Below are positions 14,668-48,590 of a DNA stretch of 64,000 bases, one piece after another. The translations under genes were made by a program, and so were the position numbers. Origin of the DNA: Vicinamibacterales bacterium (GTDB lineage Bacteria; Acidobacteriota; Vicinamibacteria; Vicinamibacterales; JAMQPK01); contig CAWGDY010000013.1 in NCBI GenBank assembly GCA_963821395.1, positions 68,113-132,112 on the forward strand, in the 5' to 3' direction. Within the stretch, counting starts at the first letter, position 1; each line of letters starts with the position of its first letter. The notes below the pieces were generated by a model. The model was not told the DNA's origin. It saw only the letters and a program-made list of their open reading frames with translations, and did no database searches.

Positions 14668-14673
14668 CACACC

Positions 14674-14770
14674 ATTCGTAGATTGGTAGATTGGAAGATT
14701 GATTCAAAGAATGCTCTAATCTGACCGTCTGCCAATCAATCTGCGAATCTCCCAATCTGCGAATCTCGCA
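14674..14770. repeat. Microsatellite-armed imperfect palindrome A (unit TAGATTGG / CCAATCTG)
   Basis: ATTCGTAGATTGG TAGATTGG AAGATTG ... CCAATCA ATCTGCGAATCT CCCAATCTGCGAAT. 14674-14686 pairs 12/13 with 14752-14764. It is AT-richer than its surroundings and lies between the response regulator stop and the adaptor gene. Confidence 0.8.
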
Positions 14771-14870
14771 ATGCGGGCGTCAGTCGTTCCTGTCCTTCTG
14801 CTCTCTAGCCGCGCTTCCCTCATGCCGGCGCGCGAGCCAGCGCGAAACCGAAGCAGAGCCTGCCGTTCCA

Positions 14871-15890
14871 GTGATCGTCGAACGCGTACGTCTTGGCAAC
14901 ATCCGCGGCACGGTCAGTGCGACCGGTATGGTCTCCACCCTTCCGGGCGCGTCCTTTGCGGTTGTGTCACCTCAACCCGCACGTATCGCCGAAATCACCA
15001 AGAACGTCGGCGACCCTGTCAAAAGCGGCGAGGTGCTCGTGCGCTTCGAGTTCCCCTCGCTTCGCGCGCAGACCGTCGTCGACGCCGCGGGTGTGAAAGC
15101 AGCGGAGCTTCGCGTGCAGCAGGCGAGGCTGGCACAGACCCGACTGAAAGCGCTGATGGCCCAGGGCGCCGCATCGCGCAGCGAGATGGACGACGCGGAG
15201 CGGGAGCTCGCCACCGCCGAGGGCGAGCTACTGACGGCGAAGGCGGCCGCGACGGCGACCGAGACGCAAAGTCAGAACACGGCAGTCCGGGCGCCCTTCG
15301 ACGGCACGGTTACCGAACGGTTGCACGACGTGGGCGACGCCGTGCGGCCCGAAGATGGCGATGCGATTCTCCGGCTGATCGATCCGAAACAGGTGCAGGT
15401 GACCGCGAACGTCTCGGTCGCCGATGCGGGGCGCTTCGTGGTCGGCGCCAGCGCCAGGGCCGTCGCTGAAGGAGCGGCGGCAGTAGGTGGCGTACCGGTG
15501 TCCCAATCACGCGCCACGGCGACGCCGGTGCTGCTCAGAGTGCTGACGCGCCCCACGCCGGAGGTCGGCGCCAGGAGTATCGAAATCACCCTGGCATTCG
15601 AAACGCCGACCGACCTGCAGCCCGGCATACAGGTCGGCGTCGAAATCGACGCCGAGCAGCGATCGAACGTCCCGCTCGTCCCGGCCATTGCCGTCCTGAA
15701 GGACGATCCCAAACAGCCGGTCGTGGTCGTGGCGTCGGGCGATGTCGCCGAGCGCCGCCCCGTGGTGATTGGCCTTGTCGATGCGGAAAATATCGAGATA
15801 CTATCGGGGCTCAAATCCGGCGAGTTGATCGTGACCCAGGGGCACACCGCCCTGAGGGACGGCACGCGCATCAGCGTGAGCGCGCCATAA
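14871..15890 (+). CDS. Efflux RND periplasmic adaptor (HlyD/MFP family); N-terminal signal apparently in another frame
   Basis: GTVSATGMVSTLPGASFAVVSPQPARIAEITKNVGDPVKSGEVLVRFE (lipoyl-like hairpin), coiled-coil AELRVQQARLAQTRL, beta-barrel C-terminus. A signal-like MRASVVPVLLLSS starts at 14771 in a different frame, suggesting an indel near 14800-14870. Confidence 0.7.
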   Translation: MIVERVRLGNIRGTVSATGMVSTLPGASFAVVSPQPARIAEITKNVGDPVKSGEVLVRFEFPSLRAQTVVDAAGVKAAELRVQQARLAQTRLKALMAQGAASRSEMDDAERELATAEGELLTAKAAATATETQSQNTAVRAPFDGTVTERLHDVGDAVRPEDGDAILRLIDPKQVQVTANVSVADAGRFVVGASARAVAEGAAAVGGVPVSQSRATATPVLLRVLTRPTPEVGARSIEITLAFETPTDLQPGIQVGVEIDAEQRSNVPLVPAIAVLKDDPKQPVVVVASGDVAERRPVVIGLVDAENIEILSGLKSGELIVTQGHTALRDGTRISVSAP

Positions 15891-15957
15891 CTTGCCAGCT
15901 GTAGCCCGCCCAAGCGGGCGAAGGCTGGACGAACGAAGGAGGATCGACGTGAAACGC

Positions 15958-17007
15958 ATGCTTTTCGCTGTGGCCCTGTGCACAGCTCTCGGGATCGTCA
16001 CGTTCTACGCTCAGGCGGGCGGGCAGAAACCGGCCTCGGCCGACCCGTACGCGAACAACGCCGACGCGGGCAAGACCAAGTTCCCGCTGGCGGCGCCGGC
16101 AGGCACGAACAGCGGAGCCAAGGAGAAACCGCTGCCCGGTGCGGTCAATACCGGGTCGATCGATCCGGCGACCTGGAAATACGGCCCGAACACCGCAGCG
16201 CCAGCGGGCTCGAAGCTGTGGAACCCGGTCAAGGCGAAGCTGAAGGCGGGCGGCCGCGTGACCGGCGGCACCGTGTTCAGTTCCACCGATCCGCTCACCT
16301 ATTGCGCGATGGCGAATGCCGGATACGACTTCATCTGGACCGAGCAGCAGCACAACGATCGCGACTGGGGACAGGCCGCGCGCATGTGGCGCACCTGCCC
16401 GCACGCCAAGGCGGTGCCCGGCGCGCGCGTCGCGTACGCCGACGAGCGCGAGATTCAGCACGCAACAGATGCGGGCGCGCTGGTCATCGTCGTCCCGACG
16501 ATCGATACGGTGCCGGAAGCGATCGCCGCGCGCGACTGGACGTACTTCCCGCCGCTCGGCAGGCGCAGCCAGGGAGGCGGACAGGGGTTCGATGCGTCCA
16601 TGTGGGGTGGCGTGCCGGGCGGCTACCGGCAGACCGTCAACGACAACATCGTGCTCGTCCTGATGATTGAAACGCTCGAAGGCGTCAAGAACGCGCACGA
16701 GATCGCCAAGATCCCGGGCGTCGACGCGGTCTTCGCCGCGAGCGGCGACCTGGGCAACTTCTCGGGCTACGCCCAGGGCACGCCCGACTACGAACGTCTG
16801 ATCAACGTGGTGCACGACGCGGCGCTCGCCGCCGGCAAGCGGCTCTGCGGTCCCTGGGCCTGGCGCGATCGTCCCGACTTCACCTGCTTCCAGAACGCAA
16901 GTGAGACGGCCGCCATCGCAAACGGCGTCACCGCCGAGCTGGGGAAAGACAAGGACACGCAGGGCAAGGTCGAGGTGGGGCCGTACGCGGCGCACCCGGG
17001 GAAGTAA
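15958..17007 (+). CDS. HpcH/HpaI-family aldolase with Sec signal peptide and a low-complexity linker of about 80 aa
   Basis: MLFAVALCTALGIVTFYAQAGGQ signal, then a P/A/G/N-rich linker. The aldolase core is LKAGGRVTGGTVFSSTDPLTYCAMANAGYDFIWTEQQH...VLVLMIETLEGVKNAHEIAKIPGVDAVFAASGDL. Confidence 0.75.
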   Translation: MLFAVALCTALGIVTFYAQAGGQKPASADPYANNADAGKTKFPLAAPAGTNSGAKEKPLPGAVNTGSIDPATWKYGPNTAAPAGSKLWNPVKAKLKAGGRVTGGTVFSSTDPLTYCAMANAGYDFIWTEQQHNDRDWGQAARMWRTCPHAKAVPGARVAYADEREIQHATDAGALVIVVPTIDTVPEAIAARDWTYFPPLGRRSQGGGQGFDASMWGGVPGGYRQTVNDNIVLVLMIETLEGVKNAHEIAKIPGVDAVFAASGDLGNFSGYAQGTPDYERLINVVHDAALAAGKRLCGPWAWRDRPDFTCFQNASETAAIANGVTAELGKDKDTQGKVEVGPYAAHPGK

Positions 17008-17010
17008 GAC

Positions 17011-17095
17011 CTTCTGTCATGGCAGATGGCAGATGGCAGATGGCGAAAAGTATCTCTGCCATTTGCCATCTGCCATTTGTCCTAGCAGGCATCAG
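17011..17095. repeat. Microsatellite-armed palindrome B (heptamer GGCAGAT / GCCATYT)
   Basis: CTTCTGTCATGGCAGATGGCAGATGGCAGATGGCG-aaaagtatctc-TGCCATTTGCCATCTGCCATTTG...CAGGCATCAG. It sits directly after the aldolase stop. Confidence 0.85.
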
Positions 17096-17120
17096 CCGGA
17101 CCTCGGGCCGGACACTACGT
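17095..17120. repeat. REP-like element, copy R3 (variant)
   Basis: GCCGGACCTCGGGCCGGACACTACGT, adjacent to palindrome B. Confidence 0.55.
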
Positions 17121-17123
17121 TTC

Positions 17124-19186
17124 TCACCGCAGATCCCAGGACTCATCGAAGAAGCCCGCAAACGCGATCGAGAATCCGTCGCTGGCGGGCTGCATCTGCA
17201 GCACGGCGATGTCGCCGAGCGTCGGCATGCTGTAGTCGGACGTGTAGGCGTTCTCGGCAATCGTCAGACCGCTGTTGAGCACGACGTACCGGGACGCAGC
17301 AATGGGATTCGGGTAGACCAGCACCGGCAGATGGCTGGCCGCCGCAAGACTCGCGACCGCCAACGCGGATCGTCACCCGGCTCCAATCCACCGGCAGGCG
17401 CGCCGACAATCGGCCAATCCAGCGATTGCTGCCAGGATCGCCAAAGAGCACGACGTTGTAGCTGGCGAAATCGGCCTCGGTCACGTCCGTGTCATTCTTC
17501 ACGCGCGGGTGCGCGCGGTAGAAGCGCGCGTACGCCTGATCGAATCGCTCGAACCGCTTCATCGCGGTTGTGCGCAGCCTCGTTCCACGGCGTGCCGGTG
17601 GGACGCACGAGCAGGAATGGATCGAGGAACGCATCGTCAATCGGGCCCTGAAGCCCATGCGTCTTGTGCAGACCCGCCCGCTTTCCGGCGGGCGCCGACT
17701 GCCAGCCCGAGCGCGGTCTTCTCGAAGGCGAGCTCGCGACCCGGCTTCACGCGCATCGCCTGACCGTCGATCCGACATCTCTGAGGCCCTTTGCCGTTTC
17801 ACGCAGCACGATCCGCGACACGTTCGTCGTCTTGATTCGATATGACGTTCCACCCGACAGCCGCTCGCATCGATTTCGGCGCGCTCGTAGTGCTTCTGAG
17901 CCCGTCAATCGTCACCCAGAAGCTCTTGTTGTAGCGGGTCGTGTAGGTGAGAAATCGAATGTGATCGGGCGACTGAAGATCCGCGGTCGGTCCACTCCTT
18001 CAGAGAACGCGTCGAGCCGCTGGCGGACTTTCGGGCTCGTGCTGTGCCCGGTATTCTCGGAAATCAGGAAGATGCGGGCGTGCCCTTCGCGACGTAGCTT
18101 GTCGGCTCGCCTTCGAAGGGAAGCCTTCCCTGGCCAGCTGTTCGCGGATTCTGATGGACGATTCGAGCTGGCCGCGCGTGGGCTCGCCTTCGGGCGGGCG
18201 AGGAATCGACGCCACCTGCGTGTCGCTGTCGCCGTCGTGCCGGCAATCGGCATGTTGAACGCATTCAGCGCCCATTCGGTCATGTTTTCCCAGATGCGGA
18301 GCGTCGGCGCTGGTACGGCGGAAATTCGTCCATCATCACGTAGCGACGCGGCCACGTGCCTGCACCGATTTCTGCGGCCACCCACCGGTCGGGATGGTGC
18401 AGCGCGAGGTGCCACGCGCCCGCTCCGCCAAGCGAGAATCCCGCGCAGCACGATGCCGCGAGTCGTCGATCTTGAAACGCCGCTTCACGGCGTCGTGACT
18501 TCGAACACATCGACCTCGCCTGCCCAATGGTTGGCGTTGTTGCCGCGGGCAAAGACCTCGAGCTGAAACTGGCCGGCATTCCACGCGCCGGTGTTGCGGG
18601 GATTTGGCGCCGGCTCAGACACGATCCGGCGGCGTGCGTAAACAGCCGTTCGCCGTCTGGGCGTTCGCGGGGACGGCGTCGTAGCAGATCCAGTTGCTCT
18701 TCGATCAGCCGCTGCGATCGGCCGTGCAGGACCATGTCGAGGCGCGTCGCCCGGGTTCCGTCATAGCTGGATGGAATCGTGAGCAGCAGCGGCTGAACGG
18801 ATCCGTCCAGCGGAGAATAGAAGCCGAGCGCGATCTTTGCCTTTTGCCGCAGTCCATGGCGACTGCCCGTTGCTGCAGCTGCTTTGCCCGTTCGATGCCG
18901 CGGTCTACCATCTTCAGCGCAAACGTCACATCGTCCTGGACGGTGACGTCCTGCGGGAATTCGAGAATCCAGTGCCGGCCTTCGCGTGAATCTCGACGTC
19001 GGCAACAAGATCGTCTTCTCCACGCGTTTCCTTGAGCGATCGCGCGAGCGGATCGAGCTCACTGAGTTTCACGCCGATGGTCCGACGATCCTGGTCGGTC
19101 AGCTGATAGGCAGGGGGAGCCTGTCGAGCGGCCACGACGATCGACGCCAGAAGTGCGATAGAAATGCCTGCGGATTTGGTTCGCAT
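17124..19186 (-). pseudogene. Secreted alpha/beta hydrolase (esterase/peptidase-like), broken by at least 6 frameshifts
   Basis: The start MRTKSAGISIALLASIVVAARQ is a signal peptide. Fragments lie in different frames: [109 protein letters not shown] (GxSxG nucleophile elbow); FASYNVVLFGDPGSNRWI; SRYVVLNSGLTIAENAYTSDYS. Confidence 0.65.
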
Positions 19187-19199
19187 GCGTCTCCCGTGG

Positions 19200-19285
19200 C
19201 TTCTGTCATGGCAGATGGCAAAAAGGTATCTTTGCCATTTGCCATTTGCCATTTGCCATCTGCCATCTGCCATGACAGGCATCAG
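19200..19285. repeat. Microsatellite-armed palindrome C, same family and orientation as B
   Basis: CTTCTGTCATGGCAGATGGCA-aaaaggtatct-TTGCCATTTGCCATTTGCCATTTGCCATCTGCCATCTGCCATGACAGGCATCAG. It shares both termini with B but has different unit counts per arm (2 left, 5 right). Confidence 0.85.
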
Positions 19286-21433
19286 TACAAGACGTACGCC
19301 GTAATCGAGTTCGTCCCGGGCAGGGCGATGTACTGCTTTCCGCCGACCATGAACGTCATCGGCGACCCTTGTGTCGTCTGCGAGATGTTGACGTTCCAGA
19401 GCGGCTTGCCCGTCTTCGCGTCGACGACCAGCAGTCCTCCGCCGCCGCCGAGAAAGATCAGTCCGCCCGCCGTCGACAGCACGCCCGACCGTCCCGCAGG
19501 AGCGGGCAGATCCCACACCTTCTTGCCGGTGAACGGATCGATCGCGCGGATGAACACGCCCGTCCGTAGTCCTTCAGTCAGCGCCGCCAGTTGCTCGCGC
19601 GCCTTGTCGCTGGGCGTGCCGCGGCCGAACCACCGGTTGTCGGCCGTGCGCCAGCGGATCGTCGTGCGACGTGTAGATGGCGCAACTGTCGCTGACACGC
19701 GCGTAGAAGAGCTTCGTCATCGGGTTGTACGACGTGCGCCTGGAAGTTCGCGCCGCCACCGCCCGCCGGGCACGCGGCCACGCCCTCTTTGGTCGCATAT
19801 CGACGCCGGATCGACAATCGGCTTGCCGTCGCTCGTGAACCCTTTGTGCCAGGTCACCTTCGTCGAGAGGTTCGCCGTCAGCAGGACTTCGCCGTTCGTG
19901 CGATCGAGAACGTAGAACATGCCGTTGCGGTCGCCGTGCATCAGCAGCTTGCGCGGCTTGCCCCTCCACATCTCGTCGACGAGCAGCATCGGCTGCACGG
20001 CGTCCCAGTCGTGCGTGTCGTGGGGTGAGAACTGGTAGTACCACTTCAGCTCGCCGGTCTTCGCGCTCAGCGCGACGACGCTCGAGGTGTAGAGGTTGTC
20101 GCCAATGCGCTCTTCTCCCGCGATGTCGGGACACGGATTGCCGATCGCCCAGTAGATCAAGTCGAGCTGCGGATCGTACGAGCCGGGCATCCAGGTCGCG
20201 CCGCAGCCGTGCTCGAGCGCCTGGCCGACCCAGGTCTCCGAGCCTTTTTCACCGCGCTTCGGAATCGAATACCACCGCCACACGCGTTCGCCGGTCGACG
20301 CGCGATAGGCATCGAGAAAGCCGCGCGCGCCTTCCTCGCCGCCCGCGACGCCCACGACGAGCAGATCGCCGACGGGCAAGCGGTGGCGACGTGGAACTGT
20401 AAGAGTCGGCGTGCGATCCCATTTCCGCGTCCCACAGCTTCTCTCCCGTGAACCGGTTGAACGCCAGAAGATGCGCGTGGTCGGTCACCATGAACGCCCT
20501 GTCGCCGCCGATCGTGACGCCGCGATTGGTGCCGATGCCGCCTTCGCTGAGAATGCCTTCGTGCGGGGCTGCGCTGTAGGTCCAGATCTGGCGGCCGGTC
20601 GTCGCGTCGAGCGCGAAGATTTCGTTCCACCCGTGACGTACATGATGCCGTCCTGCACGACGGGCGTCGACTGCACCGCTCGAGGATTGCCGGCAATCGG
20701 AAAAATCCAGGCGGCGCCCAGCCGTTGCACGTTGGATGCGTTGATCGAGCTCGAGCGGGCTGTAGCGATTGCTGGTCAGACTGCCGTCGTAGTGCGTCCA
20801 ATCCGCTTTGGGTGCAATCGGTTTCTCCCGGTAGACGTCGCCGTCTTTCGAGAGCGGCACGTACCTGCCGTTCTCCAGGAGCACGGCCGACACCTCTGAC
20901 TGCGCGAACAGCATGCCGGTCCGCGAGCGCCCGTCTGCCATCTTGATGGTGACCGTCTCGGCTCGAGTGACGGCCGTCGATCCGCGCGCAGGCTCGCTCG
21001 CGGCAGGCCCTGGCGACGAGCCAGCGCCGCGCGCCGGACCGCCTTCGCGGGCGGGACCGGCACCGCGCGCCGAAGCCGCAGCGCCCTCGAGACCCGCACC
21101 TCCTCCACGCCGGCCCGTGAAGCCGCCGGTCGCCATCGCGGGATTTGTCCCCGCCAGCTCGCGAACGCCCGCCAGCACCTGGCGAAGTTCGGCATCATCC
21201 AGCCGAAGAGGCGGCGTGTGCCGTCCACCAATCGCCGCCGTCATTTCCGCGTCGGTGTGATATCTCACGTACGTCAGAATCGGCGGCGCGCTCGCACCGG
21301 TCATGGCGGCTCCATGACAGCTGCCGCAGCGGCTCTGATAGGTGGCGACCGCCGGAGAAGGAGTCTGGGCCGACGCCGTGGACGCGACGAGCACCACTAC
21401 AACGCCGCCGATTCCCTGGACCATGCGCTTCAT
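19282..21433 (-). pseudogene. PQQ-dependent dehydrogenase (beta-propeller) fused to an N-terminal cytochrome c domain; at least 6 frameshifts
   Basis: Signal peptide plus CGSCH haem motif, then a G/A/R/P linker. Propeller segments lie in alternating frames: NVQRLGAAWIFPIAGNPRAVQSTPVVQDGIMYVTG; WNEIFALDATTGRQIWTY; PVGDLLVVGVAGGEEGARGFLDAYRASTGERVWRWY...HDTHDWD; AIDPFTGKKVWDLP...LLVVDAKTGKPLWNVN. Confidence 0.75.
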
Positions 21434-21450
21434 CTCTTGTCCTCGTGAAG

Positions 21451-21527
21451 GTCCGGCTGACCACCTCCGCCAAGGCTACGGTGGTCCGCCGTAGCTTCAG
21501 CGAAGGCGGAAGCCGGACACTACGTAC
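21451..21527. repeat. Composite REP-like nested palindrome, copy R4
   Basis: GTCCGGCTGACCACCTCCGCCAAGGCTACGGTGGTCCGCCGTAGCTTCAGCGAAGGCGGAAGCCGGACACTACGTAC, between the PQQ-dehydrogenase start and the amidohydrolase stop. Confidence 0.75.
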
Positions 21528-21530
21528 TCC

Positions 21531-22445: not shown

Positions 22446-22462
22446 CGTTGCGCTCCTTCGCT

Positions 22463-22511
22463 CCGGCTAAAGCCGGGCCCTACCTTAGCCCGGCTGAAGC
22501 CGGGCCCTACC
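22463..22511. repeat. Two tandem REP-like hairpins, copy R5
   Basis: CCGGC-TAAA-GCCGG-GCCCTACC, then TTAG, then CCCGGC-TGAA-GCCGGG-CCCTACC. Confidence 0.75.
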
Positions 22512-22513
22512 GA

Positions 22514-23728: not shown

Positions 23729-23827
23729 GGCGAGCACTTTCCGCCGGACGCGGGTATCACCCGGATCCGCCGCGGTGGAGGCGATAGGCAGGGCCACTAA
23801 GGGGATTAATGATAACTTCTCCCGAGC

Positions 23828-28749: not shown

Positions 28750-28750
28750 G

Positions 28751-28777
28751 GCCGGCTAACAGCCGGACACTACGTAC
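28751..28777. repeat. REP-like hairpin + tail, copy R7
   Basis: GCCGGC-TAAC-AGCCGGAC-ACTACGTAC, immediately upstream of the ankyrin gene start. Confidence 0.7.
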
Positions 28778-28779
28778 GG

Positions 28780-28925
28780 CAGCCCGACGCACCTATCGCA
28801 CCCAACGCACCCCTCGCACTCCTCGCTAAAGCCCTGTGCCACTGCCGCCCGGCAGGGCCGAACCCGCGAACCCCACGAACCTCACGAACCCGACGAACCC
28901 ACGAACCTACGAACCCACGAACCAT
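28780..28925. repeat. Tandem octamer arrays D (YCGCACCY x4, central hairpin, then CACGAACC-like x7)
   Basis: GACGCACC TATCGCACC CAACGCACC CCTCGCAC...GCCCTG-tgccactgccgcccgg-CAGGGC...GCGAACC CCACGAACC TCACGAACC CGACGAACC CACGAACC TACGAACC CACGAACC. It fills the gap between the DUF1552 stop and the ankyrin start. Confidence 0.8.
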
Positions 28926-30297: not shown

Positions 30298-30299
30298 GA

Positions 30300-32803: not shown

Positions 32804-32814
32804 TTGCGCCGAGA

Positions 32815-34893: not shown

Positions 34894-34953
34894 TTCTTTT
34901 CGTTGTTTCAGATCTTTTGATCTTCTGACCTTCTGATCTTCTGTGTCCGTGAC
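34894..34953. repeat. Tandem octamer array E (CTGATCTT-like)
   Basis: CAGATCTT TTGATCTT CTGACCTT CTGATCTT CTGTGTCC. It occupies the entire 60-nt spacer between the convergent sulfatase-like gene and the RidA gene. Confidence 0.75.
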
Positions 34954-35421: not shown

Positions 35422-35434
35422 AGGGATCCTCCTG

Positions 35435-35473
35435 GCGCGGCTAAAGCCGCGCCCTACGCTAAGCCGCGCTACG
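35435..35473. repeat. REP-like hairpin + tail, copy R8
   Basis: GCGCGGC-TAAA-GCCGCGC-CCTACG, followed by CTAAGCCGCGCTACG. It lies between an AGGAGG SD-proximal region and the RidA start. Confidence 0.7.
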
Positions 35474-35518
35474 TGTTGTCGCCGTTACCGTGTTGTCGCC
35501 CTACGGTGTTGTCGCCGT
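35469..35518. repeat. 16-17 nt tandem repeat x3 (core GTGTTGTCGCC)
   Basis: The core occurs at 35473-35483, 35490-35500 and 35506-35516, each preceded by TAC(N). The third copy encodes the C-terminus and stop of the amidohydrolase (LTATTP*). Confidence 0.8.
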
Positions 35519-37599: not shown

Positions 37600-37612
37600 C
37601 GCATCTCCTTGG

Positions 37613-37639
37613 GTCCGGCTAAAGCCGGACACTACGTAC
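37613..37639. repeat. REP-like hairpin + tail, copy R9
   Basis: GTCCGGC-TAAA-GCCGGAC-ACTACGTAC, 14 nt upstream of the creatininase-like start on the coding strand. Confidence 0.75.
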
Positions 37640-37724
37640 TTCACGGAGATCTCTATCCGTTCTTCCTTCTTCCTTTTTCCTTCCTTTTTCCTTACCTGCA
37701 ACGAGTTTCCTTACCTGCGACGAG
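37640..37724. repeat. Polypyrimidine (plus strand) tract F plus an 18-nt tandem duplication spanning the SelA-like stop codon
   Basis: TTCTTCCTTCTTCCTTTTTCCTTCCTTTTTCC, followed by TTCCTTACCTGCAACGAG (37688-37705) and TTCCTTACCTGCGACGAG (37707-37724). The second copy encodes the last residues and stop of the SelA-like gene. Confidence 0.8.
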
Positions 37725-39306: not shown

Positions 39307-39352
39307 GAATGCCCTCCTTACGAAAAACAGGACGTGATCTCCTGTTATGAAC

Positions 39353-39739
39353 TTACGTACTGACGCTCGGCGGTGCGAACAGTCGCGCGCCTGCATCGGA
39401 CAACATGACCCACAGCCCGTACACGCCGAGGATCGTTCCGAAAGGAATGTTCATCAGATTGAGCGCCGACAGCACGATCGTCAGAATGCGCGCCCATGGC
39501 CGGAATTTGAGCAAGCCGACCCCCGCAACGATGCCGGGCAGTGAGAGGATCAAGATAAACATGCCGAGCGCCGCGCCTGTCAGGCCGAGGACAGGCAGCG
39601 CGAGCCATGCATCGGGATCGGAGGCAGCGCCCGCCGCCCCGATGACGCTGAGAAGTGCCATCAGACCAAGCCCGGTCAAGGTGCCGAGCGCGCCAAAGAC
39701 GATGTACAGGACCGCGAGGACCTTCACGTGGGTATCCAT
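39353..39739 (-). CDS. Integral membrane protein (4 predicted helices), hypothetical
   Basis: MDTHVKVLAVLYIVFGALGTLTGLGLMALLSVIGAAG...ILILSLPGIVAGVGLLKFRPWARILTIVLSALNLMNIPFGTILGVYGLWVM. Confidence 0.5.
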   Translation of the reverse strand: MDTHVKVLAVLYIVFGALGTLTGLGLMALLSVIGAAGAASDPDAWLALPVLGLTGAALGMFILILSLPGIVAGVGLLKFRPWARILTIVLSALNLMNIPFGTILGVYGLWVMLSDAGARLFAPPSVST

Positions 39740-39802
39740 CGTCCAGCCTCCCGTTCCGCTTTCGCGGCTATGATGGCAAAGGACTATACCCTAAGTGCCA
39801 GC

Positions 39803-41353: not shown

Positions 41354-41364
41354 CGGAAAAGAAC

Positions 41365-41431
41365 GACGCAGAGCCGCCGAGGCGCAGAGTTTTTGGACAT
41401 TCTTTACTCTGCGACTTTGCGTCTCTGCGTC
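41365..41431. repeat. Repeat-armed hairpin G (unit GCGCAGAG / CTCTGCG) between convergent phoD and glnN
   Basis: GACGCAGAG CCGCCGAG GCGCAGAG-tttttggacattcttta-CTCTGCG ACTTTGCGT CTCTGCGTC. Outer and inner arms are complementary, so this is a likely bidirectional terminator. Confidence 0.75.
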
Positions 41432-41439
41432 GAACACAC

Positions 41440-43611
41440 CTACTTGATGAACAACATCTCGCGATAGGTCGCCAGCGGCCACATCGAGTGCGGCACCAAC
41501 GATTCGAGCTCATCGCCGGCCTCGCGCACCGCGGCCATCGCCGGAATCACGGTGTCGCGGTAGTGCTTGGCGTGTTTCTCGGCCAATCCGTCCCCCTCGT
41601 GCGCCAGGGTTTTCTCGAGCTTGTCGGTGCCGGCCTTCAGCTTGTCGGCCAGCTTCGTTACCTTGTCGAGCAGTTTCTTCCCCTCGACCGACTTGCCGCC
41701 GGCCTGCTTGACGGCGAACACGCTCTGCGCCACCTGCTTCTGGTATTCGAGCGCCGCCGGCAGCACGTACCGGTTGGCCATCAACACCATCAACTGCCCT
41801 TCGACGTTCACGGTCTTGTTGTAGGTCTCGACCATGATGTCGTAGCGCGCGTGCAGCTCGCGCTCGTTGAGGACCTTGTACTTCTCGAACGCCGCCACGA
41901 CCTCTTTCGCGGTGAGCTGGGGCAGCGCATCCACCGTGTTCTTCAGGTTCAGCAGCCCGCGCTTGCCCGCTTCCTTCTCCCACTCTTTCGAGTAGTTGTT
42001 GCCGTTGAAGATGATGCGCTTGTTTTCCTTGATGATCTTCGGCAGCAGCTCGCCCGCGGCCAGCTCGACCGACTTGCCGCCCTTGGTCAGCTTCTCGAGC
42101 TCGGTCGCGATGTAGTCGAGCGATTCGGTCACCGCCACGTTGAGCGCGATGTTCGGGTAGGCGATGCTCTGGCCCGACGAGACGGCACGGAACTCGAACT
42201 TGTTGCCCGTGAACGCGAACGGGCTCGTGCGATTGCGATCGCCTGAGTCGCGCGGCAGCTTCGGCAGCACCATCACGCCGGTGTCGAGCTCGCCACCGCT
42301 CTTCGAGCTCTTCGCCCCGCCCTTTTCGATCTGCTCGAAGATGTCGGTGAGCATGTCGCCGAGGAACACCGAGATGATCGCCGGCGGCGCTTCGTTCGCG
42401 CCCAGCCGGTGGTCGTTGCCCGCGCTGGCGATGCTCGCCCGCAGCAGACCCTGCCACTTGTTCACCGCGCGCAACACCGCCGTGCAGAACACCAGGAACT
42501 GGACGTTGTCGTGCGGGCTCTTGCCCGGGCCCAGGAGGTTGTTGCCCAGGTTGTCGCTCATCGACCAGTTGAGGTGCTTGCCCGATCCGTTGACGCCGGC
42601 AAACGGCTTCTCGTGCAGCAGGCACGCCAGGCCGAACTTCGGCGCCATCCGCTTCATCGTTTCCATCGTCATCATTTGATGATCGGTGGCCAGGTTGGCG
42701 TTCTCGAAGATCGGCGCGATCTCGTACTGGCTCGGCGCGACCTCGTTGTGCCGGGTCTTCACCGGCACGCCCACCTTGTACAGCTCGGTCTCGACCTCCG
42801 ACATGAAGTCCATCGCCCGCTCGGCGATCGAGCCGAAGTACTGATCTTCGAGCTCCTGTCCCTTGGGCGGCTTTGCGCCGAACAACGTGCGGCCGGCGTT
42901 AATCAGGTCGGGACGCGAAAGATAGAAGTTGAGATCGATGAGGAAGTACTCCTGCTCGGGACCGCACGTCGTCACGACGCGATTGGCCTTCGAGCCGAAG
43001 AGCTTCAGCACGCGCACGGCCTGTTTCGAAAGCGCTTCCATCGAGCGCAGCAGCGGCGTCTTCTTGTCGAGCGCCTCTCCCGTCCAGCTGACGAACGCCG
43101 TCGGGATGACGAGGGTGGTCGCCGATCCGCTCTTCAGCAGCCAGGGCGGGCTGGTCGGGTCCCATGCGGTGTAGCCGCGCGCCTCGAAGGTAGAGCGCAT
43201 GCCGCCCGACGGAAAGCTCGACGCATCGGGCTCGCCCTTGACGAGCTCTTTACCCGAGAACTCGTACACCGCTTTGCCGTCGGTCACGGGCGCGAGAAAC
43301 GAGTCGTGCTTCTCGGCGGTGATGCCGGTGAGCGGCTGGAACCAGTGCGTGTAGTGCGTCGCGCCGTGCTCGGTGGCCCAGTCCTTCAACGCGGCGGCCA
43401 CCGCGTCGGCCACCGACGCATCAAGAGCCTCCCCGTGCGTCACCGTGCGTCGCAGCGCGTCGTAAACGGGCTTCGGCAGCCGCTTCTGCTGCTCGGCGTC
43501 GTTGAACACGAGACTGCCGAACGTACCTTTGCCGTTCGGCATTTCCTTCCGTTTCGTCTCAGACCAGTCGCGTATGGCGCTGATCGCTTCACCCAATACC
43601 GCTGAGCCCAT
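41440..43611 (-). CDS. glnN: Glutamine synthetase type III
   Basis: Intact 723 aa [61 protein letters not shown] and GSGKHLNWS are characteristic of GSIII. A GAAGGAGGA SD lies upstream. Confidence 0.92.
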
Positions 43612-44112
43612 GCTGTCGTCCTCCTTCGTCGCGGGGCCGCCGGCCGCCGCTTCCTGCCGCTTTGTATGATGACGTCGTCGTCGTTCGTGTGTCCTTCGAA
43701 CGCAGGTGGCCGTGCATTCTAGCAGCCGGCGAGACTTCCTGAATCACAATTGCGGGGAAGGACACGATTTCCAATTGACATACTTATCAAGATCAGCGCC
43801 AACCAACGCTCACCACGTCCCGACCACCCAATCTCGACGTTTTTGTTAAGAATTCCCGCCGCCGATGGCGCTTGACCGGGCGGCGCGCTCGCATGTCCGA
43901 GGCGACGACAGCGTAGGTCTTAAGGGAAATGAGCGACATTCGTGTCGCTTCCTCATTTCCCGTAAACGATGGAGAACTCGCGTCGTGCGAAAGGTTGCGA
44001 CGCATGGCGGATTTTGTGGAGAGTGAGCGTCCGGACCCACAAACTTGTTGGGTTGACGAGATTTGGTCACAAGCTTGTCTGCCGAGCTCCATCCTGCACT
44101 TTGGACCCGCCG

Positions 44113-45189
44113 TCAGAACCCGCCTCGCTCCTTGTTCCTGTAGATCTCTTTGGCCGCCTGATGGAGTTTCTTCCAGCGCTTTTTCTCGGCGGCTGCCGCG
44201 GCCTTGTCGCGCTTGCGCTCTTCGAAGGCGACCTCACGTCCGAGGTGGCGGTAGTGCTCGAGACGCTCGGGGTCGAGATCGCCGCGCGCGACGGCTGCCA
44301 TCACCTCGCATCCCGGTTCGGTCTGGTGCGCGCAGTCGCCGAAACGGCACCCGGCCGCCAGCGCGGCGATGTCCTCGAAGGTTTCCCCGACCGCCGACTC
44401 GTCCACCCACGGCTGCAGCTCGCGCATGCCCGGCGTGTCGATGAGAAGCGCCCCGCCCGGCAGCTCCACCAGGTGGCGCGCCGTCGTGGTGTGACGCCCC
44501 CTCCCGTCGGCTTCGCGGATACTCGCTGTCTTCAGGCGATCCTCCCCGAGCAGCCGGTTGACGAGCGTGGACTTGCCGACACCGGAGGAGCCGATCAGGG
44601 CAACCGTCTGGCCTGGTGTGAGATACGCGGTCAGCGCGTCGAGACCGTCGCCCTGCCTGGCGCTGACGGCCAGCACATCGACAAACGGCAGGCGGCGGGA
44701 AATGTCTGCAGCGTCGGAGACCGGGTCGGCGCTCAAGTCGGTCTTGTTGAGCACGACGACCGGCACCGCCCCGGCGTCGCGCACCACGGTGAGATAGCGC
44801 TCGATGCGCCGGGGATTGAGATCCTCGGCCAGCGCCGTGACCAGGAAGATGGTGTCGACGTTGGCGGCCACCACCTGCTCTTCGACCGCACGACCGGCGG
44901 CTTTCCTGGAGATGGTGCTGCGGCGGTCGAGACGACGAATGATGATGGCGCGCTCGGTCGCCGCCGGGGCCGTCAGGCAGACCCAGTCGCCCACCGCGGG
45001 AAAGTCTGCCGTCATCCGGGTGTCGTGACGGAATCGGCCGCTCACCTCGGCCCATCCGTCGAAGTCACCGGCGACCCGATAGGCGCCTCGCTGTTCTTCC
45101 ACCACGCGGGCGACAGAGGGTCTCGTCGACTCTTCCGCGAGCTGCTGCGCGAAGAAATCACTCCACCCCATGCGCTCGAGCGGAAGCAT
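44113..45189 (-). CDS. rsgA: Ribosome small-subunit-dependent GTPase A with a basic C-terminal tail
   Basis: VVLNKTDL, GQTVALIGSSGVGKSTLVNRLLG, GRHTTT, DTPGMRE, and the zinc site CRFGDCAH..EPGC. The tail is KRDKAAAAAEKKRWKKLHQAAKEIYRNKERGGF. Confidence 0.9.
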   Translation of the reverse strand: MLPLERMGWSDFFAQQLAEESTRPSVARVVEEQRGAYRVAGDFDGWAEVSGRFRHDTRMTADFPAVGDWVCLTAPAATERAIIIRRLDRRSTISRKAAGRAVEEQVVAANVDTIFLVTALAEDLNPRRIERYLTVVRDAGAVPVVVLNKTDLSADPVSDAADISRRLPFVDVLAVSARQGDGLDALTAYLTPGQTVALIGSSGVGKSTLVNRLLGEDRLKTASIREADGRGRHTTTARHLVELPGGALLIDTPGMRELQPWVDESAVGETFEDIAALAAGCRFGDCAHQTEPGCEVMAAVARGDLDPERLEHYRHLGREVAFEERKRDKAAAAAEKKRWKKLHQAAKEIYRNKERGGF

Positions 45190-45226
45190 GCCGGAATCCT
45201 AGCACTCTCGTGAATAATCGTTGATT

Positions 45227-46216
45227 ATGCGCATCGCCTTCTTCAGCACGCACCGCTTCGATCGGCAGTTCTTCGATGCCGCCAATCGAGTGACACACCA
45301 TGACATCGACTACCTGGAGCCGCGGCTCGTGTCGGCAACGGCGTCGCTGGCCGCCGGGGCGCCGGCCGTGTGCGCGTTCGTGAACGACACGCTCGACGAA
45401 GTCACGCTGCGGCACCTGGCGTCCGGCGGAACGAAGATGATTGCGCTGCGATCGGCCGGCTTCAACAACGTCGATCTCGCCGCGGCGCGGACGCTCGGCC
45501 TGACCGTGGCCCGCGTGCCGGCGTACTCACCACATTCGGTGGCCGAACACGCCGTGGCGCTCATCCTCACGTTGAACCGGAAAATCCACCGGGCCTACAT
45601 ACGTGTCCGCGACGGAAATTTCTCCCTCGATGGATTGCTGGGATTCGACATGCACACGCGGACCGCCGGCGTGGTCGGAACCGGCAAGATCGGCGCGATC
45701 GTCGCGAAGATTTTGAGCGGGTTCGGCTGCCGGATTCTCGCGTACGACGTCGCGCAGAATCCCGAGTGTGTCGCGCTTGGCGCACGATACGTCACGCTCG
45801 ACGAGCTGTGGGCGCAGTCCGACATCGTCACGCTGCATGCGCCGCTGACGTCGACGACGAGGCACATGATCGATGCGGCGGCGATTGCGAAGATGAAACC
45901 CGGCGTGATGATCATCAACACGAGCCGCGGAGCACTGGTCGACACCGCGGCCTTGATCGAAGGGCTGAAGAGCAGGCACGTCGGCTTTGTCGGGCTCGAT
46001 GTCTACGAGGAAGAAGAGCACCTCTTCTTCAAGGACCTGTCATCCCACGTCATTACAGACGACGTGTTCGCGCGCCTGCTGACCTTTCCAAACGTCCTGG
46101 TGACGGCACACCAGGCGTTCTTCACGAGCGAGGCGCTTACCGTGATCAGCGAGACCACCCTGCGGAACGTGACGGCCTTCGAGCGCGGCGAGCGGAGCGG
46201 CAACGAGCTGTTCTGA
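45227..46216 (+). CDS. ldhA: D-lactate dehydrogenase (2-hydroxyacid dehydrogenase family)
   Basis: MRIAFFSTHRFDRQFFD...RSAGFNNVDL...VARVPAYSPHSVAEHAVALILTLNRKIHRAY..R..NFSLDGLLGFD..TAGVVGTGKIG matches the LdhA pattern closely. Confidence 0.88.
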   Translation: MRIAFFSTHRFDRQFFDAANRVTHHDIDYLEPRLVSATASLAAGAPAVCAFVNDTLDEVTLRHLASGGTKMIALRSAGFNNVDLAAARTLGLTVARVPAYSPHSVAEHAVALILTLNRKIHRAYIRVRDGNFSLDGLLGFDMHTRTAGVVGTGKIGAIVAKILSGFGCRILAYDVAQNPECVALGARYVTLDELWAQSDIVTLHAPLTSTTRHMIDAAAIAKMKPGVMIINTSRGALVDTAALIEGLKSRHVGFVGLDVYEEEEHLFFKDLSSHVITDDVFARLLTFPNVLVTAHQAFFTSEALTVISETTLRNVTAFERGERSGNELF

Positions 46217-46237
46217 GCTGGCCTGTCAACGTATCAA

Positions 46238-46264
46238 GGCGGAACTGAAGTTCCGCCCTACATC
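46238..46264. repeat. REP-like hairpin + tail, copy R10
   Basis: GGCGGAAC-TGAA-GTTCCGCC-CTACATC, just after the ldhA stop. Confidence 0.65.
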
Positions 46265-46446
46265 AGATGGGCTAACCACTGGACGACCTCGAACGCCGCG
46301 GTCAACACGAGCCCGGCGGCCATCACAAGAATCGCGAGCGCAAACATGGCGGCGATGGCGCCCCCCATGAACGCCACGATCGTGTTCATCAGCTTGAGGA
46401 GCGTCAGGTGATCCCGGTCATCGGCAACAGCCAGGTGCGCGTTCAT
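46258..46446 (-). CDS. Small membrane protein (hypothetical)
   Basis: 62 aa with two hydrophobic helices (IVAFMGGAIAAMFALAILVMAAGLVLTAAF). The 3' end overlaps REP-like hairpin R10. Confidence 0.35.
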   Translation of the reverse strand: MNAHLAVADDRDHLTLLKLMNTIVAFMGGAIAAMFALAILVMAAGLVLTAAFEVVQWLAHLM

Positions 46447-46580
46447 GTAAGTGCCTCCGCACCAGCATGAGCAAGGGGCGTACCCGCGGAATCTGCCCGA
46501 TTGCGCCTGATCGCGCGCACGTTCGGCCGGCCGGTGGGAATTTTTCCCCGAGGTGGTGAATTTTCGCGTAGCGTTCGGCG

Positions 46581-47615
46581 TCAGCGCGCTTCGAGGTACT
46601 TCTTGGTGGCGGTGAGCCCCGACTCGAGCCCGCTGCGCACGCCCTCGCGGACTTTCCCTCTGATGATCCGGCCGACGAACCCGCTCAAGCCGTCCGAACG
46701 GCTGCGATTGACCATCACCAGCCAGAAGCCGGTACCGCGAGACGCCTGGGGTACGAGCACCCGCAGCTCGAGCGCGGTCCAGAAATAGTGACTCGAATAG
46801 AGCTGCTTGGACGCCACGACCGTCGCGTCTTTCTCTTCTTGAATCGCGACGTGATTGAGTCTGATAGTGGGCTTGAGACCAAATTCGGCCTCCTGCCAGT
46901 AGATGAATGACGTGATGGGCCGGGCTGAGGGCTTCGGGTAGTCGAGGAGGTATTGACGCATGTCCGGCACGTACGCGGCGAGCTCGGGCATCCCCTTCAA
47001 CAGCTCGCGGAACTCGTTGGCGACAAATGTCGGATTGGCTCCGTCCCGGTACACGGCGAGGCGCGCGTTGCCGCCCTGGCGGTAGGCGTTGACGTAGTCG
47101 AGCGCCATCTGCCGAACGAGCCGTTCCAGCTGCGCTTTCGTATCCGGCGCCGACCAGTTCACTTCTTTCTTCAAGCGGGCGAGAGCCTCCGCGCTCGCTT
47201 TCAACTCGCAGTCGCCCACCTTACACAATCGGAGATCCTGCACATCATCGTCGGGCAGCACGAGCGCGGCGAAATCCTCGAGCCGGGCCGGATCGCTCAC
47301 TTTCTTGGTGACGCGGAAGCCGCCGCCCGACTCGAAGCGCTCGATGTCGTGCATCGCCGCCACGTAGCGCGCGATCGGCGCCGCGATCCAGATTGCGCCG
47401 AACACACCGACCTCTTTGGCTGGATCGCCCTCGAGCTGCCTCGCGAACGGCGCCCCGCTCTGAAGCGCGCGCCGCTCCTCCACGGTCAGCTTTACGACAC
47501 TGGTGAGGTATTCCTCCAGGCGCGGGGGGAACGCCGCCTGCCCCTCGAGGCGCGCGGGGCGCACGAGGCAACACATCACGAGCCCGACAACCAACATCTT
47601 CAGCGCGGAGGACAT
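46581..47615 (-). CDS. Secreted hypothetical protein
   Basis: Intact 344 aa ORF with signal MSSALKMLVVGLVMCCLVRPARLEGQ and balanced composition. No family recognised. Confidence 0.6.
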   Translation of the reverse strand: MSSALKMLVVGLVMCCLVRPARLEGQAAFPPRLEEYLTSVVKLTVEERRALQSGAPFARQLEGDPAKEVGVFGAIWIAAPIARYVAAMHDIERFESGGGFRVTKKVSDPARLEDFAALVLPDDDVQDLRLCKVGDCELKASAEALARLKKEVNWSAPDTKAQLERLVRQMALDYVNAYRQGGNARLAVYRDGANPTFVANEFRELLKGMPELAAYVPDMRQYLLDYPKPSARPITSFIYWQEAEFGLKPTIRLNHVAIQEEKDATVVASKQLYSSHYFWTALELRVLVPQASRGTGFWLVMVNRSRSDGLSGFVGRIIRGKVREGVRSGLESGLTATKKYLEAR

Positions 47616-47661
47616 GGGCTTTCCTCCTCGCGAGTGTAGCGCAGGCGTGACACAATGGTGA

Positions 47662-48492
47662 ATGGCTCAGAACCTTTCCGACTACGAACTGCGCCAGTCT
47701 CCAGACCAGCCGCCACCGCTGCAATCGTTCAAATCGAAGCGGCTGTGGATTGTGGCGGCCCTGCTGCTCGTTGCCGCCGGCCTCGCCTACTACGTGTTCA
47801 ACCGATCGCCAACCGTTCCGGACACCGAGACGACCACGCCGAAACCGGCGGCGGCCGACACGGTAGCCGCCCGCAACCCGAGCGCGGTGACGCTTCCGCC
47901 CATCGAGCAGAGCGACGGCCTGGTGCGCAAGCTCGTCTCCGAACTGTCGAAGAACCCGACGGTGGCGACGTGGCTCGCGACCGACGACCTCATCCGCAAC
48001 TTCACCGTCGTCGTGTCCAACATTACCGCGGAGGAATCGCCTGGCGTGCACGTCAGTCAGATGCGCCCGAAGGCCCGCTTCCAGATCATCGAACGGAACG
48101 GACAGATGACGATCGACCCGCGCAGCTACCAGCGATACACGCCGATCGCCTCGGCGGTGGGCGCCCTCGACCCGGAAGGCTGTGCGCGCCTGTACGCGAC
48201 GCTGAAGCCGCTGATGGAAAAAGCGCATCGCGATCTCGGATACAACAACTCGTTCGACGCGACGTTCGAGAGCGCCATCGTCAAGCTGCTCTCGACGCCG
48301 ACGCTGAAGGATCCGGTGCGCGTCGTGCCGCACGGCATCGGGTATGCGTTTGAGGATTCGCGGCTGGAGGCGCTGTCGCCGGCGCAGAAGCATCTTCTGC
48401 GCTTCGGACCGGCCAACGCTCAAGTCGTGCAGCAGGCGCTGCGGAACATCGCCGTCGCGGTGGGCATACCCAGGGAGCGGCTACCTAAATAG
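47662..48492 (+). CDS. DUF3014-like membrane-anchored protein
   Basis: N-terminal TM (LWIVAALLLVAAGLAYYVF). SDGLVRKLVSELSKNP...DDLIRNFTVVVSNI...RYTPIASAVGALDPEGCARLYATLKPLMEKAHRDLGY resembles DUF3014. The family call is from memory. Confidence 0.6.
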   Translation: MAQNLSDYELRQSPDQPPPLQSFKSKRLWIVAALLLVAAGLAYYVFNRSPTVPDTETTTPKPAAADTVAARNPSAVTLPPIEQSDGLVRKLVSELSKNPTVATWLATDDLIRNFTVVVSNITAEESPGVHVSQMRPKARFQIIERNGQMTIDPRSYQRYTPIASAVGALDPEGCARLYATLKPLMEKAHRDLGYNNSFDATFESAIVKLLSTPTLKDPVRVVPHGIGYAFEDSRLEALSPAQKHLLRFGPANAQVVQQALRNIAVAVGIPRERLPK

Positions 48493-48590
48493 TCGTTAGG
48501 CGCAAGTCGTCAGTCTTAAGTCGCTAGTCTGTCGTCAGTCTTCAGTCGTCAGTTTCTGACTGAAAACTGAGAACTGTTAACTGAGAACTG
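48493..48590. repeat. Microsatellite-like segment H (CAGTCKT units, then GAGAACTGTTAACT units)
   Basis: AGTCGTCAGTCTTA AGTCGCTAGTCTG TCGTCAGTCTTC AGTCGTCAGTTTC TGACTGAAAACTGAGAACTGTTAACTGAGAACTGTTA. The centre CAGTTTCTGACTGAAAACTG is palindromic. It fills the spacer between the convergent DUF3014-like gene and bcp. Confidence 0.75.

Follow-up and report, generated by a model that had tools for sequence, protein, structure and literature searches.

Between the genes of a 64,000-nucleotide stretch from a Vicinamibacterales bacterium (contig CAWGDY010000013.1, positions 68,113 to 132,112; hereafter the window) lie eight short segments made of tandem repeats, several of which can fold back on themselves, and the question they raise is what they are and how they came to sit where genes end. 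An earlier note on the same DNA had described them as hairpins with microsatellite arms of 7–8 nt units. All eight are present at the positions and with the units given there (unit length 7–9 nt), and every period-7 or period-8 array that Tandem Repeats Finder scores at 39 or more in the window falls inside one of them. On balance we lean towards reading them as slippage-variable palindromic repeat elements, built and spread by a mutational process acting on DNA, with a putative hairpin function at the 3′ ends of genes. The structural part of this reading, namely that they form dispersed, slippage-variable palindromic families at gene 3′ ends, is very probably correct. The 3′-end hairpin function, which we derive from position and structure, is plausible but unproven. 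All told, the observation was confirmed, and the interpretation that came with it is partly supported.

The window was compared with 172 related loci (labelled L001 and so on; 2.35 Mb in total). These comprised contigs whose glutamine synthetase III (GSIII) proteins are 92–98% identical to that of the window, 80 species representatives of the Genome Taxonomy Database (GTDB), and 80 metagenome contigs from among the matches listed, with few near relatives. The sampling is centred on a single gene neighbourhood, that of GSIII, and the data are thin for the window's own species. The GSIII gene of the window lies at 41440-43611 on the minus strand, and its closest relatives are found in metagenome-assembled genomes (MAGs) labelled Vicinamibacterales or Acidobacteria. 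With an array defined as a period of 6–11 and at least 2.8 copies, we counted 311 arrays in 2.35 Mb, of which 161 have period 7, 88 period 9 and 47 period 8; other periods are almost absent. The spacers of the window and related loci (about 300 kb) hold 204 arrays, whereas three shuffles of the same spacers that preserved dinucleotides gave 0, 1 and 0. A first census had likewise placed 77 of 97 period-7 arrays and 27 of 28 period-8 arrays in intergenic DNA. An assembly or sequencing artefact, a concern raised with the first description, is a negligible prospect. Several fragmented genes in the window (17.1–21.4 kb) could reflect indel errors, but elements of these kinds turn up in well over a hundred assemblies that come independently from different projects, and one spacer element is base-for-base identical in seven separate soil metagenome assemblies. 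The arrays are real, non-random and lineage-wide in Vicinamibacterales.

As the earlier note had proposed, the segments are tied to gene 3′ ends. Pfam hits on the flanking open reading frames (ORFs), together with the stop positions, place the start of all eight (A to H in Table 1) 0–11 nt past a stop codon. B, E, G and H occupy spacers between convergent genes, and E, G and H fill theirs completely; A, C, D and F lie 3′ of one gene and 5′ of the next gene on the same strand. The accompanying claim that none is inside a coding sequence holds for the spacer placement, but not for one edge of F. Its 19-nt tandem duplication (TTTCCTTACCTGCRACGAG twice, 37687-37724) covers the last codons and the stop (37711-37713, minus strand) of the upstream gene for a pyridoxal-phosphate (PLP)-dependent enzyme. 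As 19 cannot be divided evenly by 3, the TAA copy on the upstream side in F falls out of frame, and the last few residues of the protein are thus probably altered.

The related loci show the same placement. Spacer types were assigned from gene calls made with our own codon-bias heuristic, and the GSIII spacer and duplicate sequences were excluded. Arrays were present in 41 of 141 convergent spacers (29%; 1.92 per kb), in 66 of 569 co-directional spacers (12%; 0.62 per kb) and in 17 of 284 divergent spacers (6%; 0.21 per kb). Convergent and divergent spacers thus differ with an odds ratio of 6.4 (p = 3e-10) and 9-fold in density per kb. Of 150 unique regions downstream of GSIII, 64 contain an array. 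The distance between the stop codon and the start of the first array has a median of 10 nt, and in several loci the stop codon itself opens the first unit (for example TAGGCAG x4 in L154 and TAGGGGC in L116).

We next consider composition and folding. The description as AT-richer islands fits six of the segments (40–51% GC, against 63.5% for the window), fits G only slightly (57%) and fails for D (66%). Long hairpins had been claimed for A, B, C, G and partly H. RNA folding against shuffled sequences bore this out for the first four (z from -3.2 to -6.6), with energies on the plus and minus strands of -44.3 and -40 kcal/mol for A (z -5.5/-3.2), -50.7 and -45.8 for B (z -6.2/-5.9), -40.3 and -40.9 for C (z -4.9/-4.8) and -41.5 and -40.4 for G (z -6.6/-5.4). 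H folds weakly (z -1.4/-2.3), its sole hairpin being a 13-bp core. D, E and F were correctly described as same-strand arrays: they show no long stem and no folding beyond shuffles on either strand (D, z about +0.7 to +1; E, z -0.3/-1.0), and D has no inverted arms.

Dyad hairpins, scored as inverted repeats with 18 or more matched bp, make up 81 of 217 array clusters (37%), with a median span of 93 nt, a maximum of 287 nt (L058) and a median best folding energy of -57.5 kcal/mol. Their arms have a fixed polarity. The 5′ arm contains more G than C in 67 of 79 informative hairpins (67:12, p = 2e-10), and because this property is invariant under reverse complementation it is independent of the orientation of the locus. 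Lone arrays that adjoin a stop codon are also G-rich on the sense strand (68:20). An explanation of the polarity by a need for stops in all frames was rejected: stops occur only in sense in 29 arrays and only in antisense in 24, and the polarity persists in stop-free units (56:17).

The largest hairpin, L058:11429-11721 (about 290 nt), deserves separate mention. It consists of (GGCAGAA/GGCAAAA) x20 facing (TTCTACC/CTCCTAC) x19, with each arm homogenised to its own variant, and all 27 mismatches are C.A or A.C, wobble-compatible only opposite the called-gene strand.

Table 1. Repeat elements of the window, with coordinates, architecture and gene context. GTAG-REP, repetitive extragenic palindrome with a GTAG head.
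Element	Position	Strand	Architecture	Context
A	14674..14764	.	hairpin: left arm TAGATTGG x3.5, right arm CCAATCTG/CGAATCTC x3.6, AT-rich centre	6 nt past TGA of response-regulator gene (+); HlyD-family gene (+) downstream
B	17015..17087	.	hairpin: GGCAGAT x3.7 vs GCCATYT x3.3	3 nt past TAA of HpcH-aldolase gene (+); convergent with fragmented minus-strand ORF; GTAG-REP next, ~17093-17120
C	19202..19279	.	B family with B ends (TTCTGTCATGGCAGATGG...GACAGGCATCAG); arms unequal, ~1.5 vs ~6 units	abuts TGA of PQQ-repeat gene fragment (-)
D	28783..28923	-	sense order: (GGTTCGTG) x8, short GC hairpin (~28836-28859), (GGTGCGnnn) x4	abuts TAA of DUF1552 gene; distal GTAG-REP 28752-28778, then ankyrin gene start
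E	34894..34953	.	one-strand array TTCTGATC x4.6 (CAGAAGAT on minus strand)	entire 60-nt spacer between convergent stops of sulfatase (+) and RidA-family gene (-)
F	37660..37724	-	sense-strand purine-rich arrays GGAAGAA/GGAAAAA plus 19-nt duplication	distal order: small hairpin 37643-37660, GTAG-REP 37612-37638, creatininase-family gene start
G	41355..41432	.	hairpin 41364-41432, arms (A)CGCAGAG and CTCTGCG(n)	between convergent stops of PhoD (+) and GSIII (-); on minus strand, stem then TTCTTTTCC (41363-41355)
H	48490..48593	.	left AGTCGTC/AGTCTTC x7; right ACTGAGA/AACTGTT x4.6; 13-bp core hairpin ~48535-48570	occupies spacer between convergent stops of DUF3014 gene (+) and AhpC/TSA gene (-)
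Further member	11906..11935	.	CAGGAGAT-family half-element AACAGGAGATTAAGAGATCAGGAGG; 24/24 match to L054 site 2, 24/25 to L006	
Further member	39323..39346	-	minimal hairpin AACAGGAGatcacgTCCTGTT plus T run	shortly past TAA of 128-aa membrane-protein gene

The arms had been suspected of slippage, and near-identical contigs do differ by whole units. Over the last 1500 nt of GSIII, L135 and L136 show 99.93% identity, and in the 260 nt downstream a single 8-nt unit and one substitution separate them; between L162 and L164, also 99.93% identical, the difference is a 54-nt block of six 9-nt units. Similarly, H and the orthologous spacer of L054 are homologous and differ by unit-level indels, and arm lengths differ between B and C. 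Over slightly larger distances the unit itself changes. The GSIII gene of the window is 97.5% identical to that of L001 (94.5% at third codon positions) and the flanking PhoD proteins are 97% identical; the arms of the spacer between the two genes are CGCAGAG in the window and CAGGAGAT in L001, L006, L054, L077, L170 and L171. Other relatives carry CGATTGn, CACGAAGA, AGTCGTC, GTCTGAAG, GTTAGCC, TGGTCATC, GGTTCAC, GAGGTTA and many more at this spacer. Arm complementarity is kept while the arm sequence turns over. As a separate observation, L006 has a GSIII gene 99.4% identical to that of L001, yet its last codons and downstream hairpin resemble L054, which suggests a recombination breakpoint at the 3′ end of GSIII.

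The original impression of a different unit at each locus was not upheld. B and C have the same unit and share the ends TTCTGTCATGG...GACAGGCATCAG beyond the palindrome, and are therefore two copies of one element; the same GGCAGAT family is found at L077:17941. The CAGGAGAT element is about 80 nt long, with the consensus AACAGGAGATCAGGAGnTCAGGAGGGCYAGGAGAATTCTTTT..AAAAGA..TTCTCCTnATCTCCTGATCTCCTGTT and then T's. Copies that share its non-periodic core lie at sites that are not orthologous (L054:12173, L054:15467, L077:12183, L077:14339, L057:1760 and three in L009); the family occupies a minimum of 10 sites overall, with a half-copy in the window at ~11910; the core GGAGGGCYAGGAGAATTCTTTT itself is present twice each in L054 and L077 and in L001 and L006. 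The CGCAGAG family occupies the GSIII spacer in the window (G), L090 and L120, and a different spacer in L011 (L011:14383, site 2). The right arm of this L011 copy matches G at 25 of 27 positions, with the common core CTCTGCGCCTCGGCG(GC)TCTGCGTCG; G's relatives fall below the BLAST threshold and are clear in alignment. AGTCGTC arrays are present at six places in different genomes (H in the window, L054, L011, L115, L018 and L057). Thus, at least four unit types of the window recur non-orthologously, CAGGAGAT and CGCAGAG with shared non-periodic detail, which makes them dispersed families. Over the whole sample, identical units were common to different loci 77 times, against 10.1 +/- 2.3 expected (7.6x) when rotation and strand were allowed for and letters were permuted within units.

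These recurrences bear on the idea of an independent local origin, in which each array arises by slippage in place after its stop codon, nothing is copied, and the recurrence of units is convergence. Many arrays do open with the stop codon inside the first unit, as in L154 and L116, F duplicates a stop-codon region, and A, D and F are without relatives in the sample. However, non-orthologous copies share non-periodic cores, B and C share ends beyond the palindrome, and identical units are shared far above expectation, so that this origin is already contradicted for at least three families. We consider it very improbable as a general account.

Individual spacers also change their occupant. Between the stop of the 128-aa membrane-protein gene and the start of the PLP-enzyme gene, L090 is empty (16 nt) and L001 has a T-rich duplication. 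The window has a 6-bp hairpin followed by TTTTT, L054 and L077 have the full ~80-nt CAGGAGAT element (ending with TTTT in L054), and L011 has a CGCAGAG element. Several states at one orthologous spacer imply that different families use the same site and that elements expand, contract and get replaced. D offers a further contrast between filled and nearly empty sites, as the corresponding orthologous spacer of L010 measures just about 12 nt.

Taken together, the elements would represent a lineage-wide set of small (~60-290 bp), non-coding, palindromic sequences of Vicinamibacterales. In the proposed anatomy, the core is a near-palindromic, AT-rich centre in some elements and a GC hairpin plus T tract in others, and it is flanked by arms of tandem 7–9 nt units, G-rich in the 5′ arm and C-rich in the 3′ arm, that start from 0 to ~10 nt after the stop codon. 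Slipped-strand mispairing would gain and lose whole 7–9 nt units, which would account for the differences in arm length seen between near-identical strains. Complementarity of the arms may be upheld by selection for pairing, by palindrome-templated (quasipalindrome) template switching, or by both. Elements of a family would be copied into other 3′ spacers and displace each other at a given spacer, and the one-strand arrays D, E and F would be forms with the 5′ arm only. When transcribed, an element would end the upstream mRNA with a very stable 3′ hairpin. Such a hairpin may terminate transcription, mostly with no U tract and often in both directions, or may hold back 3′ exonucleases and read-through.

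We then compared the array hairpins with canonical terminators, i.e. GC hairpins followed by a T tract. In a simple scan of the related loci these proved scarce, at 70 per 1690 called genes (~4%). They share the G-rich 5′ arm (55 of 62 informative sites, 55:7). The polarity common to both hairpin kinds may reflect a general constraint on 3′-end hairpins. In many relatives, among them L055, L036, L043, L154 and L162, the arrays symmetrically flank a canonical terminator, in the order G-rich array, hairpin with T tract, C-rich array. This nesting and the common polarity favour a 3′-end role, as does the correspondence at one orthologous site between the 6-bp hairpin with TTTTT of the window and the 80-nt array hairpin with TTTT of L054. 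On the sense strand of GSIII a T tract follows G and its CAGGAGAT-type orthologues, and the stem pairing survives at least 12 GC<->GU changes on this strand; G looks like a terminator (hairpin and T tract) for the minus-strand GSIII gene. The earlier verdict that the hairpins are not canonical GC-stem/U-tract terminators thus holds for most of them, but not for G. Within the window a U-rich tract is found only at G (minus strand, TTCTTTTCC) and at the mini hairpin 39323-39346, and canonical terminator-like sites at 12001-52000 are not above shuffles (10 vs 12.5; 8 vs 13.5).

Several results weigh against the account that we prefer. The 81 array hairpins show no general T tract, with an average of 2.7 T in the following 10 nt, the same as on the side that is not a gene end. 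Of 108 sense sides, 14 have at least 5 T, a share like that of the non-sense sides. Selection on the RNA left no detectable trace: in co-directional spacers folding favours the sense RNA in 22 cases and the antisense RNA in 18 (p = 0.44), and G.U-compatible mismatches number 68 in sense and 79 in antisense. The stems exceed by far the strength that a terminator needs, and this resembles runaway growth. Where an array surrounds a central terminator, its 3′ arm lies beyond the T tract and hence outside the terminated transcript, so the symmetry there is a property at the DNA level. The filled, mini and empty orthologous sites show no target-site duplication or defined insertion boundary, and a Pfam scan of 30 window ORFs, from 64 kb of the genome, found no transposase domain. 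Finally, BLAST of A, D and F against the 2.35 Mb sample found no relatives, which says little because just 64 kb of this genome is covered.

The same data invite the view that the elements are selfish or neutral only, i.e. hypermutable minisatellite palindromes that pile up in the least-constrained 3′ spacers, with dyads that arise by replication template switching at pre-existing hairpins and with no transcription or RNA role. It would account for the lack of strand preference in RNA stability and wobble pairs, for the excess strength of the stems, for 3′ arms that sit past the T tract of central terminators, for the rapid turnover with empty orthologous sites (L090 site 2; L010 at D), and for arrays that reach exactly to the stop codons (E, G, H). 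Pure neutrality does not, however, predict a 5′-G-rich polarity equal to that of canonical terminators, nor does it sit well with a spacer that stays occupied across many species despite changing sequence, or with the sense-strand T tract and G.U-preserving changes of the family downstream of GSIII. The 9-fold higher density per kb in convergent over divergent spacers also speaks against it, though relaxed constraint could explain part of this. We regard this view as possible but rather unlikely. The specific proposal of the earlier note, that stem length tunes termination, is hypothetical and not supported: with a median of -57.5 kcal/mol the stems are far stronger than a terminator needs.

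The preferred account, a DNA-level process with a putative 3′-end hairpin function, can also be extended. The elements could be self-expanding mobile "terminator palindromes", actively copied just past stop codons by a dedicated hairpin-targeting enzyme or by hairpin-templated replication switching. Since the arms would change in steps of 7–9 nt and stay complementary, 3′ hairpin strength and read-through would be rapidly evolvable and strain-variable. We find this extension unlikely.

Vicinamibacteria are among the most abundant soil bacteria, and their genetics has barely been studied. If the array hairpins mark transcript ends, they would supply missing punctuation for annotating and engineering these bacteria, a natural setting where strains differ from each other by discrete steps in terminator stem length, and a clear case of co-evolving arms with sequence turnover within a few percent of neutral divergence. 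The elements are also likely break or collapse points in metagenome assemblies, could be high-resolution strain markers and can yield spurious ORFs.

Whether this is a described repeat class had been left open by the earlier note. There are precedents in heptamer simple sequence repeats, in inverted pairs of Xanthomonas and in paired sites of Geobacter; in the literature that could be searched, no description of these elements turned up. Rfam gave no match at gathering score in the window. Long simple sequence repeats (SSRs) with units of 5–11 nt, which include the cyanobacterial heptanucleotide short tandemly repeated repetitive (STRR) sequences, have 7 nt as the commonest period, and heptanucleotides lead among long SSRs in several bacterial groups. 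They are almost all intergenic unless the period is a multiple of 3, vary in copy number and have a patchy phylogeny, and slippage has been proposed as their cause (Mrazek, Guo & Shah 2007, as summarised in PMC4679880 and PMC4692102). Our arrays resemble them in being head-to-tail units of this length, mainly intergenic, more frequent than chance and, in the related loci, polymorphic in unit number between strains. In contrast to long SSRs, arrays of the window type are at least one third dyad hairpins, lie at stop codons, have a fixed G-rich-5′ polarity and form dispersed families with non-periodic cores; moreover, Acidobacteria are absent from the repeat-rich genomes listed in these summaries (PMC4679880, PMC4692102).

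Paired sites of tandem repeats in Geobacter metallireducens (TCTCCGTS x3 on opposite strands; also MTYCTGA x5) have been put forward as sites of global regulators (Aklujkar et al. 2009, PMC2700814). They are likewise multicopy and intergenic, with 3–5 tandem units of 7–9 nt, opposite-strand pairs and several families per genome. Unlike our elements, the Geobacter pairs were read as protein-binding and have variable distances, and no 3′-end association, polymorphism or turnover was reported for them (PMC2700814). A corresponding explanation here would be that an oligomeric protein which binds DNA or RNA (a global regulator, CsrA, Hfq or cold-shock proteins) occupies the arrays, with one protomer per 7–9 nt unit. 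The regular 7–9 nt spacing, the GGA or Shine-Dalgarno-like motifs of some units (CAGGAGAT, GGAAGAA) and the Geobacter precedent would agree with this. Against it, the units are very diverse and no common motif stands out, the best 4-mers (GTTC, TCAG, GATC, TCGG) being enriched only 2-3.6 fold. Unrelated units occupy the same spacer in close relatives, and the arrays are rarest in divergent, promoter-bearing spacers. We judge binding-site arrays to be a quite improbable explanation.

The heptamer repeats GGGAATC of Xanthomonas, with GGGGAYT as the Nostoc counterpart, include 70–75 convergent inverted-repeat pairs per Xanthomonas genome that are capable of stem-loops or cruciforms (Rehm et al. 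2015, PMC4692102); their length differs between related species, whereas their type (single or inverted pair) is kept (PMC4692102). Our arrays are also intergenic heptamer arrays, many of them paired on opposite strands. The Xanthomonas class was nevertheless rejected as an identity, as it requires a single G3-4 unit and is read as a G-quadruplex (G4) former with one G3 unit genome-wide, while here dozens of units occur, mostly without G3, and families swap at the same orthologous spacer. One species comes closer to the single-unit case: in a 22-kb stretch of its MAG MFD09212.bin.1.140 (L041:1600-21500), unlike the window with its many families, 9-nt arrays of one related family (CAACCCGAC and GGTTGGTCG types) fill nearly every spacer, and one array reaches 20 copies.

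A role in non-B DNA would follow similar lines, with G-rich non-template arrays that form G4s or R-loops and pause RNA polymerase, or cruciforms that absorb supercoiling between convergent genes. The G-rich 5′ arms, the GGG/GGGG runs in arrays of some relatives (GGGGATA, GGGGCTTA, TAGGGGC), the AT-rich palindrome centres, which favour extrusion, and the Xanthomonas/Nostoc precedent would be in line with it. However, most units, and every window element except D, have only GG or a single G, so that G4 is not general; in the window the units have at most GG except in some D copies. Furthermore, convergent 3′ ends build up positive supercoils, which disfavour cruciforms. We think this is very unlikely.

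REPs and REPINs are GTAG-tagged palindromes mobilised by RAYT transposases, and it has been suggested that they terminate transcripts or stabilise mRNA (Di Nocera et al. 2013, PMC3733652). The array hairpins share with REPs that they are short dispersed intergenic palindromes, mostly 3′ of genes, with several families per genome, and probably transcribed; as 3′ hairpins the two would operate alike. They carry no GTAG head, which rules out this identity as the earlier note had concluded; unlike in REPs, their arms are tandem arrays of variable length, and no RAYT was found among the 30 Pfam-scanned window ORFs. MITEs (miniature inverted-repeat transposable elements) and ERIC-type imperfect palindromes are small, non-coding, dispersed, hairpin-forming stretches of transcribed intergenic DNA (Delihas 2011, PMC3184786). 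Like MITEs, our elements have many dispersed copies of a short non-coding sequence with filled and empty orthologous sites, but the whole element is one palindrome, with no separate terminal inverted repeats, target-site duplication or parent insertion sequence identified, and its microsatellite interior is unusual.

High-GC bacteria such as Streptomyces and mycobacteria have "I-shaped" terminators, long imperfect inverted repeats between convergent genes, often with no U tract and able to act in both directions. Unlike the arms described here, those stems are not known to be periodic, to vary strongly in unit number or to form dispersed families. What sets the present elements apart from all compared systems is the combination of many families, the strict placement at stop codons, the fixed arm polarity, the replacement of families at an orthologous site and the very high density in an acidobacterial order.

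Two further identities were rejected. A CRISPR array, which had already been dismissed, does not fit, as the units are 7–9 nt long and contiguous, against repeats of 23–50 nt with unique spacers. Integron attC sites do not fit either: the ends (for example AACAGGAG...CTCCTGTT and then T) do not agree with the RYYYAAC ... GTTRRRY cores, and the flanks are syntenic housekeeping genes in mixed orientation.

The window also contains a separate, genuine GTAG-headed REP family, 5′-GTAGTGTCCGGCnnnnGCCGGAC-3′ on the minus strand, at 17093-17120, 21505-21527, 28752-28778 and 37612-37638. Its 12-mer GTAGTGTCCGGC is present in four exact copies (17107, 21512, 28762, 37624), three of them directly distal to B, D and F. 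This REP also occurs at the orthologous position in L009, with further copies in L014, L036, L045 and L077; GTAG REPs were not listed for Acidobacteria in a 2013 survey (PMC3733652). Two variants were seen in the window, a head-to-tail doublet of CTCCGGCTAAAGCCGGGCCCTAC (x2) at 22455-22511, and at 35430-35518 GGCGCGGCTAAAGCCGCGCCCTACG followed by a 16-nt tandem repeat (CTACGTGTTGTCGCCGTTA-like, 2.8–3.3 copies).

Two minor observations concern the surroundings of A, B and C. The sole sigma-70-like promoter match in 12–32 kb (CTGACA-17-TAGATT, 14664-14692) lies on the left arm of A and is probably a chance consequence of the TAGATTGG unit. On the minus strand at 17124-21433 the genes look fragmented. 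Between B and C, the pieces of an alpha/beta-hydrolase-like reading frame (motif GFSLGGAG) lie in three frames or more, and a PQQ-dependent dehydrogenase is broken up into the ORFs 19282-19698, 19717-20379 and 20249-21433; these genes are either pseudogenes or the product of indel errors in the assembly.

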